A stretch of DNA of 64,000 nucleotides, from IMG/VR virus record IMGVR_UViG_3300028588_000020, positions 6,035 through 70,034 of that record. The stretch is one strand, 5' to 3'. Origin of the DNA: a virus. This document shows, in pieces, positions 38,523 to 38,602 of this stretch (position 1 is its first letter; each line of letters begins with the position of its first letter). Below the pieces are notes generated by a model. The model did not search any database. It was not told the origin of the DNA and saw only the letters and a program-made list of their open reading frames with translations. Position numbers and translations under genes: made by a program.

Positions 38523-38602
38523 GTGGCGCGCGTAGTTCAGCGGCAGAACCTGGCCTGCACAAGCCATGGTCGCGGGTTCGAGTCCCGCCGTGCGACACTC
38601 CA
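38523..38602 (+). tRNA. Atypical tRNA-like element (GCA/GCAC anticodon, extended acceptor stem, U-CCA end)
   Basis: D arm GTTC/GAAC, T arm GCGGG-TTCGAGT-CCCGC, anticodon arm TGGC-CTGCACAA-GCCA. Confidence 0.75.

Follow-up and report, generated by a model that had tools for sequence, protein, structure and literature searches.

A non-canonical tRNA look-alike in the non-coding block of an uncultured soil phage: a possible RNase P-cleavable, non-decoding accessory element

Results

The non-coding block and its surroundings

The DNA studied here belongs to an uncultured soil phage represented by a 72,175-bp IMG/VR virus record (IMGVR_UViG_3300028588_000020; 65% GC, linear, 77% complete according to CheckV). 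The whole stretch of 64 kb of this record that was analysed (positions 6,035 to 70,034) is referred to as the window, and coordinates are those of the window unless another sequence is named. The phage genes include those for baseplate and tail proteins, a RecT/exonuclease/SbcC-like module, DNA methyltransferases and a large terminase-like protein.

Codon-position GC periodicity was clear in the genes on both flanks and absent across 36900-38700; this 1.8-kb stretch is a non-coding block. Its two long non-coding spacers were named RNA A and RNA B. The order of elements is RNA A, tRNA-fMet, RNA B, an odd tRNA (referred to below as the look-alike), a hairpin and then genes (Table 1). Only two tRNA-type genes, the tRNA-fMet(CAU) and the look-alike, were detected in the block by ARAGORN and Rfam. 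No promoter-like or terminator-like sites were found in 36500-39400, and neither RNA A nor RNA B matched the GOLLD model or the ROOL model. The 254-aa protein encoded upstream is an orphan. An attP reading was considered and found to be unsupported, as the search of the record for an integrase was negative. In 16 leaf-litter metatranscriptome runs, 7-19% of the words sampled from the block were present, and in one further run, possibly of DNA, 42%; these shares are no evidence of expression.

Table 1. Features of the non-coding block and of the tRNA look-alike (window coordinates)
Feature	Position	Strand	Remarks
tRNA-fMet(CAU)	37742..37817	+	61.1 bits; C1.A72; encoded CCA; canonical; between RNA A and RNA B
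15-nt perfect complement of 38515-38529	37843..37857	+	complementary to the tRNA leader and the first 7 acceptor nt
Strain-variable segment, ~160 nt	38437..38597	+	absent from L056; last 86 nt of RNA B plus look-alike; junction ambiguous by 1-3 nt
tRNA look-alike, longest register	38523..38602	+	10-bp acceptor, D arm, 4-bp/8-nt anticodon arm, 5-nt variable loop, T arm, U73, CCA
Acceptor helix, 5' strand	38523..38532	+	GUGGCGCGCG; 38523-38526 also within the 12-nt repeat CCAGCCATGTGG
D arm	38535..38549	+	GUUC / AGCGGCA / GAAC; G18 G19 present
Anticodon arm	38551..38566	+	16 nt, not 17; stem UGGC/GCCA, loop CUGCACAA; U33 present; GCA or GCAC
T arm	38572..38588	+	GCGGG / UUCGAGU / CCCGC; shares 91% identity with its counterpart in the adjacent tRNA-fMet
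Acceptor helix, 3' strand, then U73-CCA (10-bp register)	38589..38602	+	CGUGCGACAC; the 7-bp (Rfam) register takes C38596 as discriminator
Nested hairpin	38603..38690	+	between look-alike and first gene; stable, no U-tract; -38.5 kcal/mol, z -3.9
First downstream gene, 84 aa	38710..38964	+	orphan; only relative P0242, 99% identical, which marks contig L056

At the start of RNA A (36940-37000), the motifs GACTTG-YN-CGCATTGCGT-N-AG and TTGANNTTCAA were found, which are conserved also in contigs L013 (1830-1945, minus strand) and L015 (3470-3580, minus strand), where RecT is only 55-60% identical. The motifs are probably an operator/promoter together with the 5' end of the RNA. The promoter/5' motif gave no matches in the metagenome and viral collections; in species genomes it gave three, of which two were without homology past the motif and the third was without any blast match. 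At its other end (37722-37741), RNA A terminates in GAACTCGGCACCA, 4 nt 5' of tRNA-fMet, and the RNA B of contig L056 (514-530 of that contig) terminates in GAACCGCACCCA. The two ends may represent a common acceptor-like NCCA 3' motif of both large RNAs. A pattern combining GGTGAAGGTAGCCC with tRNA-fMet had no matches in IMG/VR.

Anatomy of the tRNA look-alike

In the initial annotation, a tRNA with a 10-bp acceptor stem and an 8-nt anticodon loop had been described at this place. Every pair listed there was found again by direct reading and by a pair-by-pair check. ARAGORN, which had been suggested as a check, called 38525-38598 as tRNA-?(Cys|Val)(gcac), with Cys and Val undecided, and drew it with an 8-bp acceptor stem, a 4-bp anticodon stem and an 8-nt loop. 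With the Rfam model RF00005, 38526-38596 scored 38.0 bits and passed the gathering threshold (cut-off 29). Infernal aligned the look-alike in a 7-bp register with 1:72 unpaired, and score was lost only at the anticodon arm and at 1:72. The look-alike is a genuine tRNA-derived gene.

The D and T arms and the elbow nucleotides G18 G19, T54 T55 C56 and A58 are those of a tRNA. The D stem is formed by 38535-38538 with 38546-38549, the D loop AGCGGCA contains GG, and the variable loop is UGGUC. The tertiary-core positions are all intact, and besides the elbow nucleotides these comprise U8, G10, G15/C48 and G53-C61. The anticodon arm, in which UGGC (38551-38554) pairs with GCCA (38563-38566), has 4 bp and 8 nt in place of a 5-bp stem and a 7-nt loop; an alternative pairing consists of five pairs, including one C.A, around a 6-nt loop. 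Local specifier-type pairing of the anticodon loop was rejected, the loop complement TTGTGCAG being absent from the block.

The acceptor helix does not have the usual form of 7 bp followed by an in-register N73-CCA: the 7-bp register gives G.A at 1:72 and ACU at positions 74-76. Three further pairs continue past this register, and U-CCA is in register only beyond them. From the outside inwards, the pairs are G38523-C38598, U38524-A38597 and G38525-C38596, then the mismatch G38526.A38595, and then C38527-G38594, G38528-C38593, C38529-G38592, the wobble G38530.U38591, C38531-G38590 and G38532-C38589. U38522 stands at position -1, and U38599 followed by CCA (38600-38602) comes after the helix. 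The helix was kept both in the minimum free energy fold of the 80-mer (-30.6 kcal/mol) and in an imposed cloverleaf (-28.1 kcal/mol).

This anatomy is real and unusual, because among 50 control tRNAs from one bacterial genome and several phage arrays, none had an acceptor helix extending by at least 3 bp into the flanks. By our own arithmetic, the chance of three extra pairs followed by an in-register NCCA at 65% GC is ~1e-3, and it rises to ~0.01-0.03 when any extension length is allowed.

Ancestry and isotype

The best local likenesses of the look-alike were to a phage tRNA-His, to the "tRNA-TERM" of Sinorhizobium phage phiM12 and to a phage tRNA-Cys. The likeness to tRNA-Cys amounts to 87% over the anticodon and T arms, and the two loops, CUGCAAA in the phage tRNA-Cys and CUGCA[C]AA in the look-alike, are one base apart. 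When it was aligned globally to 50 tRNAs, no clear parent emerged, and isotype assignment by this route was dropped; the body is about equally like tRNAs of the Gly, Trp, Asp, His and Cys types. It is the body of a generic class-I tRNA without an assignable isotype. When the exact D and T arms were searched for with a free anticodon arm, only two JGI metagenome sequences were found, a canonical tRNA-Gly and a canonical tRNA-Trp. The former is a phage-array tRNA-Gly(GCC) that also agrees with the look-alike in its acceptor top GUG...CAC and in U73. It lies in a 16-tRNA-gene array on a metagenome contig (L054, 378-4303).

The loop pattern CTGCACAA matched one canonical phage tRNA-Cys and one unrelated odd tRNA. 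The first is an AT-rich phage tRNA-Cys(GCA) (L017, 7603-7676, minus strand) with the loop CUGCACA and thus C37 where a purine is usual. The second (L019, 2602-2676, minus strand) lies among three tRNA-Met genes on an IMG/VR contig that carries 14 tRNA genes in all. Its acceptor, with C1.A72, is initiator-like, its anticodon arm consists of a 4-bp stem and the 8-nt loop UGCACAAG, and it is not homologous in register to 38523-38602.

These likenesses bear on whether the look-alike could be a functional non-decoding tRNA that ends in NCCA and is charged through Cys-, Gly- or His-type signals or is bound by a host factor. Such an RNA could divert tRNA-targeting defence nucleases, as a decoy or bait, or it could donate an amino acid outside translation. 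The intact L-shape elements, the encoded UCCA end, the identity of the acceptor top GUG...CAC-U and of the D and T arms with those of the phage-array tRNA-Gly(GCC), the G-1:C73 pair that fits the His type in the 8-bp register and the loop of the L017 tRNA-Cys are all consistent with this explanation. The presence of the element in one strain and its absence from another, described below, would also be typical of accessory counter-defence genes. Evasion of tRNA-targeting host defences has been proposed for phage tRNAs with altered anticodon loops (PMC10264068). Several observations argue against a charged tRNA. The isotype is unassignable, the identity elements are split between registers, and the three extra pairs would move the acceptor end away from the anticodon. 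No partner gene was found, the neighbours checked being orphans or without a family match, and no conservation was found. With regard to tRNA-His, G38525-C38596 is present, but the loop is CUGCACAA and 1:72 is G.A. With regard to tRNA-Cys, for which the identity elements of CysRS are U73, the anticodon GCA and a 7-nt loop, the signals are mixed: GCA is present in the loop and the likeness to phage tRNA-Cys is considerable, while the loop carries an extra C and U73 is available only in the 10-bp register. The Cys-chargeable decoy proposed in the initial annotation is weakened, since in the one register that offers U73 the acceptor end would lie 3 bp further from the anticodon than CysRS should expect. 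A functional non-decoding tRNA of this kind is considered unlikely.

Search for a frameshift target

It had also been proposed that the look-alike is a +1 frameshift suppressor, that is, a quadruplet decoder of GUGC (or UGCA) in phage genes. The 8-nt loop, with U33 before GCAC and two purines after it, is in agreement with this proposal. All same-strand ORF pairs of the 72-kb record that stand in a +1 relation and have a coding signal on both sides were scanned. There were 10 such pairs; an in-frame GTG-C was present in the overlap of four, and TGC-A in that of none. No pair that needs a +1 shift at an in-frame GTG-C or TGC-A was found in this record, which is 77% complete. One GTG-C pair was rejected since the coding signal switches 250 nt away from the site, and the others since the apparent second ORF is the shadow of a convergent (plus-strand) or opposite-strand gene. 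Ordinary genes, either neighbouring or on the opposite strand, thus account for all four pairs. One of the shadowing genes, beside the terminase gene, appears HTH-like by eye. In L053, a terminase-large-subunit-like gene with the Walker A motif GVESGKT (635-3259, plus strand; genome 68634-71258) is convergent with a small HTH (Xre-like) gene (3209-3568, minus strand; genome 71208-71567) just outside the window. Downstream of the RNA block, the first gene ends and the second begins within TGATG (38962-38966), the stop and the start having one base in common, which indicates that these two genes are translationally coupled and not frameshifted.

The structure points in the same direction. Known suppressors with 8-nt anticodon loops, such as sufD tRNA-Gly and sufA6/sufB2 tRNA-Pro, have identifiable target sites, and the classical ones retain a 5-bp anticodon stem and a 7-bp acceptor. 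With these suppressors and with engineered quadruplet tRNAs (PMC9094753, PMC8481270), the look-alike has in common the 8-nt loop and the retained U33; they have a 5-bp stem, a 7-bp acceptor and targets, whereas it has a 4-bp stem, an extended acceptor of 8-10 bp and no target that could be found. It is thus not a canonical tRNA with one extra loop base. Moreover, the gene is missing in a near-identical strain (L056). The proposal is accordingly disfavoured as hardly credible.

Relatives and strain variability

No homologues of the look-alike were found in phage records, IMG/VR or JGI metagenomes. Megablast and blastn searches of phage records gave generic tRNA likeness only, and in IMG/VR neither exact and degenerate patterns of the look-alike nor the D-arm and T-arm pattern with a free anticodon arm had any match. 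Relatives were then approached through the neighbouring genes. In a search space of 1.8 billion representatives, the sole relative of the 84-aa protein was P0242, which is encoded on a 970-nt Logan contig, L056, the only sequence near-identical to the block.

L056 aligns to 37954-39105 with ~97% identity (29 differences in 943 aligned bases). The strain-variable segment is absent from it, and with this segment the look-alike is missing up to its canonical discriminator; no tRNA was detected in L056. The core of the 3' hairpin (38612-38670) is also missing. The first 40 nt of L056 are unlike the window, and the region of the 37843-37950 hairpin thus differs too. Of the 29 substitutions, 12 are clustered within 37 nt of RNA B (38208-38244), which looks like a swapped or fast-evolving hairpin tip. 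Provided that the run behind L056 is DNA, the look-alike thus varies between near-identical strains; if the run is cDNA, the gap could have arisen during copying and would then not reflect a difference between genomes.

The junction in L056, GAACCGC-ACCCA (GAACCGCACCCA), is similar to GAACTCGGCACCA, with which RNA A ends. This similarity is a hint that an insertion in the window has split a native 3' motif. It is equally conceivable that L056 lost the segment by slippage between CGCUAC and CGACAC. Because the outermost acceptor pairs and the CCA lie at or just past the edge of the strain-variable segment, the 10-bp register is perhaps partly a junction accident, and both this register and the in-register CCA may be by-products of the indel junction.

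More distant relatives were reached through RecT: three syntenic contigs of 21-94 kb encode homologues with 55-60% identity. In two of them, L013 and L015, the promoter/5' end of RNA A is conserved and parts of RNA A are present in the same place. ARAGORN and Rfam found no tRNA within the 10 kb covered on each side in L013, L014 or L015. A T-arm-like hairpin of L013 was considered as a remnant of tRNA-fMet and rejected, since its position, upstream of the 3' block that is conserved in RNA A, is not that of the tRNA. The VrlC-like protein gave nothing in IMG/VR; its best matches in phage records had 46-51% identity, and there was no tRNA cassette in the three records checked. Homologues of the methyltransferases were not syntenic and were discarded as a route to relatives.

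The initial annotation had named random decay among homologues as the sign of a pseudo-tRNA. What was found goes half of this way: L056 is without the element, and the distant relatives are without a tRNA in the fetched stretches. Nor is the look-alike conserved together with its host RNA: L056 keeps RNA B at ~97% and L013 and L015 keep parts of RNA A, all of them without the look-alike in the stretches covered. It may therefore be asked whether the look-alike is a neutral relic, i.e., a tRNA gene that was gained by the lineage or is being lost from it and has no selected role. In such a relic, the anticodon-arm indel and the acceptor G.A would have disabled the tRNA, and the 10-bp helix and the in-register CCA would be accidents of the flanks. 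The absence from ~97% identical L056 and from the three RecT contigs, the lack of homologues in the three collections, the 16-nt anticodon arm and the junction, which suggests that the CCA came from the recipient site, are in favour of this explanation. On the other hand, the disruptive deviations are confined to the anticodon arm and the acceptor top, while the D arm, the T arm and the core are flawless. U-1, G1:C72, U73 and CCA stand in one register, and extensions of at least 3 bp were absent from all control tRNAs. Cutting by RNase P would still be probable in a relic, given the same upper half, and the molecular behaviour would be much as in a processing element. A neutral relic, although somewhat unlikely in itself, is thus a close rival.

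Complementarity between RNA B and the acceptor

Another explanation treats the look-alike as a part of RNA B: 38515-38529 would pair with 37843-37857 and thereby close RNA B, and the tRNA fold would be the alternative state of a switch. In addition to the perfect complementarity over 15 nt, it is consistent with this model that L056 is without the 38515-38529 partner and that its first 40 nt, upstream of ~37954, are unlike the window. However, 37843-37857 is locked in a local hairpin, 37846-37866/37926-37946, which lies 26 nt after tRNA-fMet and has 21 bp with one A-C (-63.3 kcal/mol, z -6.6). In the fold of 37818-38700, this local hairpin had a probability of ~0.99 and the long-range helix a probability of 0. 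The 3' arm of the 37843-37950 hairpin and the leader of the odd tRNA have the 12-mer CCAGCCATGTGG in common. Since this 12-nt core occurs in three copies and is palindromic at its centre, the complementarity may reflect duplication only. The switch is considered highly improbable.

Discussion

The best explanation of these data is that the look-alike is an accessory, non-decoding tRNA look-alike that is cleavable by RNase P and ends RNA B. This reading is tentative, and its probability is estimated at about 0.4. It is suggested by three features taken together: the parts needed for RNase P and 3' trimming are kept (elbow, T arm, acceptor helix, U-1, G1:C72, U73 and CCA), the parts needed for decoding are lost, and the boundary between RNA B and the mRNA is without terminators.

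RNA A, tRNA-fMet, RNA B, the odd tRNA, the hairpin and the genes would constitute one transcription unit, in which an accessory module of ~160 nt, consisting of the leader and the look-alike, would form the 3' end of RNA B. Because the D/T elbow, the T arm and the acceptor helix, which make up the upper half, are intact, the host RNase P should recognise the look-alike, and cleavage is predicted at the base of the acceptor helix. A cut at 38522/38523 would be favoured by the in-register arrangement U-1 | G1:C72 ... U73-CCA, whereas the canonical 12-bp measure would place it at 38524-38526. The cut would end RNA B and release a tRNA-shaped RNA of ~75-80 nt. It would also part the non-coding RNAs from the downstream mRNA, the 5' end of which would then be capped by the stable hairpin. 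The 15-bp acceptor/T stack, if the 10 bp persist, and the 16-nt anticodon arm should not fit normal decoding. We infer all three points, namely, cleavage by RNase P, the cut site and the lack of decoding. Between RNA A and RNA B, the same punctuation job is done by tRNA-fMet.

The initial annotation had offered a processing tag for RNA B as one of its options. This option is plausible. It fits the layout, since the element follows a long non-coding RNA directly on its 3' side, promoters and terminators are lacking from RNA A to the genes, and the elbow, the stack, U-1, G1:C72, U73 and CCA are intact. L056 does without the element, and any processing role must therefore be dispensable. In the fold of the 37818-38700 transcript, the acceptor and D stem had a probability of ~0; long-range folds of such GC-rich RNA are unreliable.

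A further interpretation takes the 15-bp stack and the UCCA end as deliberate: the RNA would be matured by host RNase P and 3' trimming, charged by a synthetase for which the acceptor end suffices and kept off the ribosome, and it would act as a decoy or bait against tRNA-directed defence or as the 3'-end module of a giant non-coding RNA. This is regarded as quite improbable. If it were true, the look-alike would be an exchangeable accessory cassette of an RNA operon.

Among known kinds of genes, the look-alike is an aberrant phage tRNA gene. It resembles canonical phage and bacterial elongator tRNAs in its cloverleaf, its standard D and T arms, its 5-nt variable loop and its core positions. 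It differs from them in its 8-10-bp acceptor with an internal G.A, in a CCA that is three bases out of register, in the anticodon arm of 4 bp and 8 nt and in the lack of an assignable isotype. Acceptors of more than 7 bp occur in tRNA-Sec (8/5 or 9/4), in allo-tRNAs (8/4, 9/3) and in tRNA-His (G-1:C73). In these tRNAs, the acceptor/T stack has 12-13 bp, and tRNA-Sec and allo-tRNAs have a long variable arm. The look-alike is similar to them in the length of its acceptor, and G38525-C38596 corresponds to G-1:C73. In contrast to tRNA-Sec and allo-tRNAs, its stack is 8-10 + 5 bp (13-15 bp) and its variable loop has 5 nt; it is also without GUG, UCA or a similar matching anticodon. To our knowledge, acceptor helices extended to 10 bp do not occur together with a short variable loop.

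tRNA-like processing handles are found at the ends of long non-coding RNAs, as in the case of MALAT1 mascRNA, and polycistronic transcripts are punctuated by tRNAs. Stable RNAs are also co-transcribed with the tRNA cluster of T4. As in mascRNA and tRNA punctuation, a tRNA shape with intact RNase P parts lies here directly 3' of a large structured RNA without a terminator. The present element differs in that it belongs to a bacterial phage and in that a near-identical strain does without it. GOLLD and ROOL RNAs occur in the tRNA arrays of bacteria and prophages, and a tRNA, for example tRNA-Phe, is embedded in some GOLLD RNAs (PMC12990946). The block is similar to these large ornate phage and prophage RNAs in that large RNAs are interleaved with tRNA genes. 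It differs from them in that RNA A and RNA B match neither model and in that the look-alike is non-canonical and lies at a 3' boundary, not inside a junction.

The look-alike is a single strain-variable gene, and its main value is as a marker of a modular phage RNA operon, the modules of which (hairpin, leader plus tRNA, 3' hairpin) come and go between ~97% identical strains. If the look-alike is cut and matured, it would be a bacterial-virus case of a tRNA look-alike that ends and releases a large structured RNA, and tRNA-shaped RNAs of out-of-range geometry would serve as exchangeable accessory modules.
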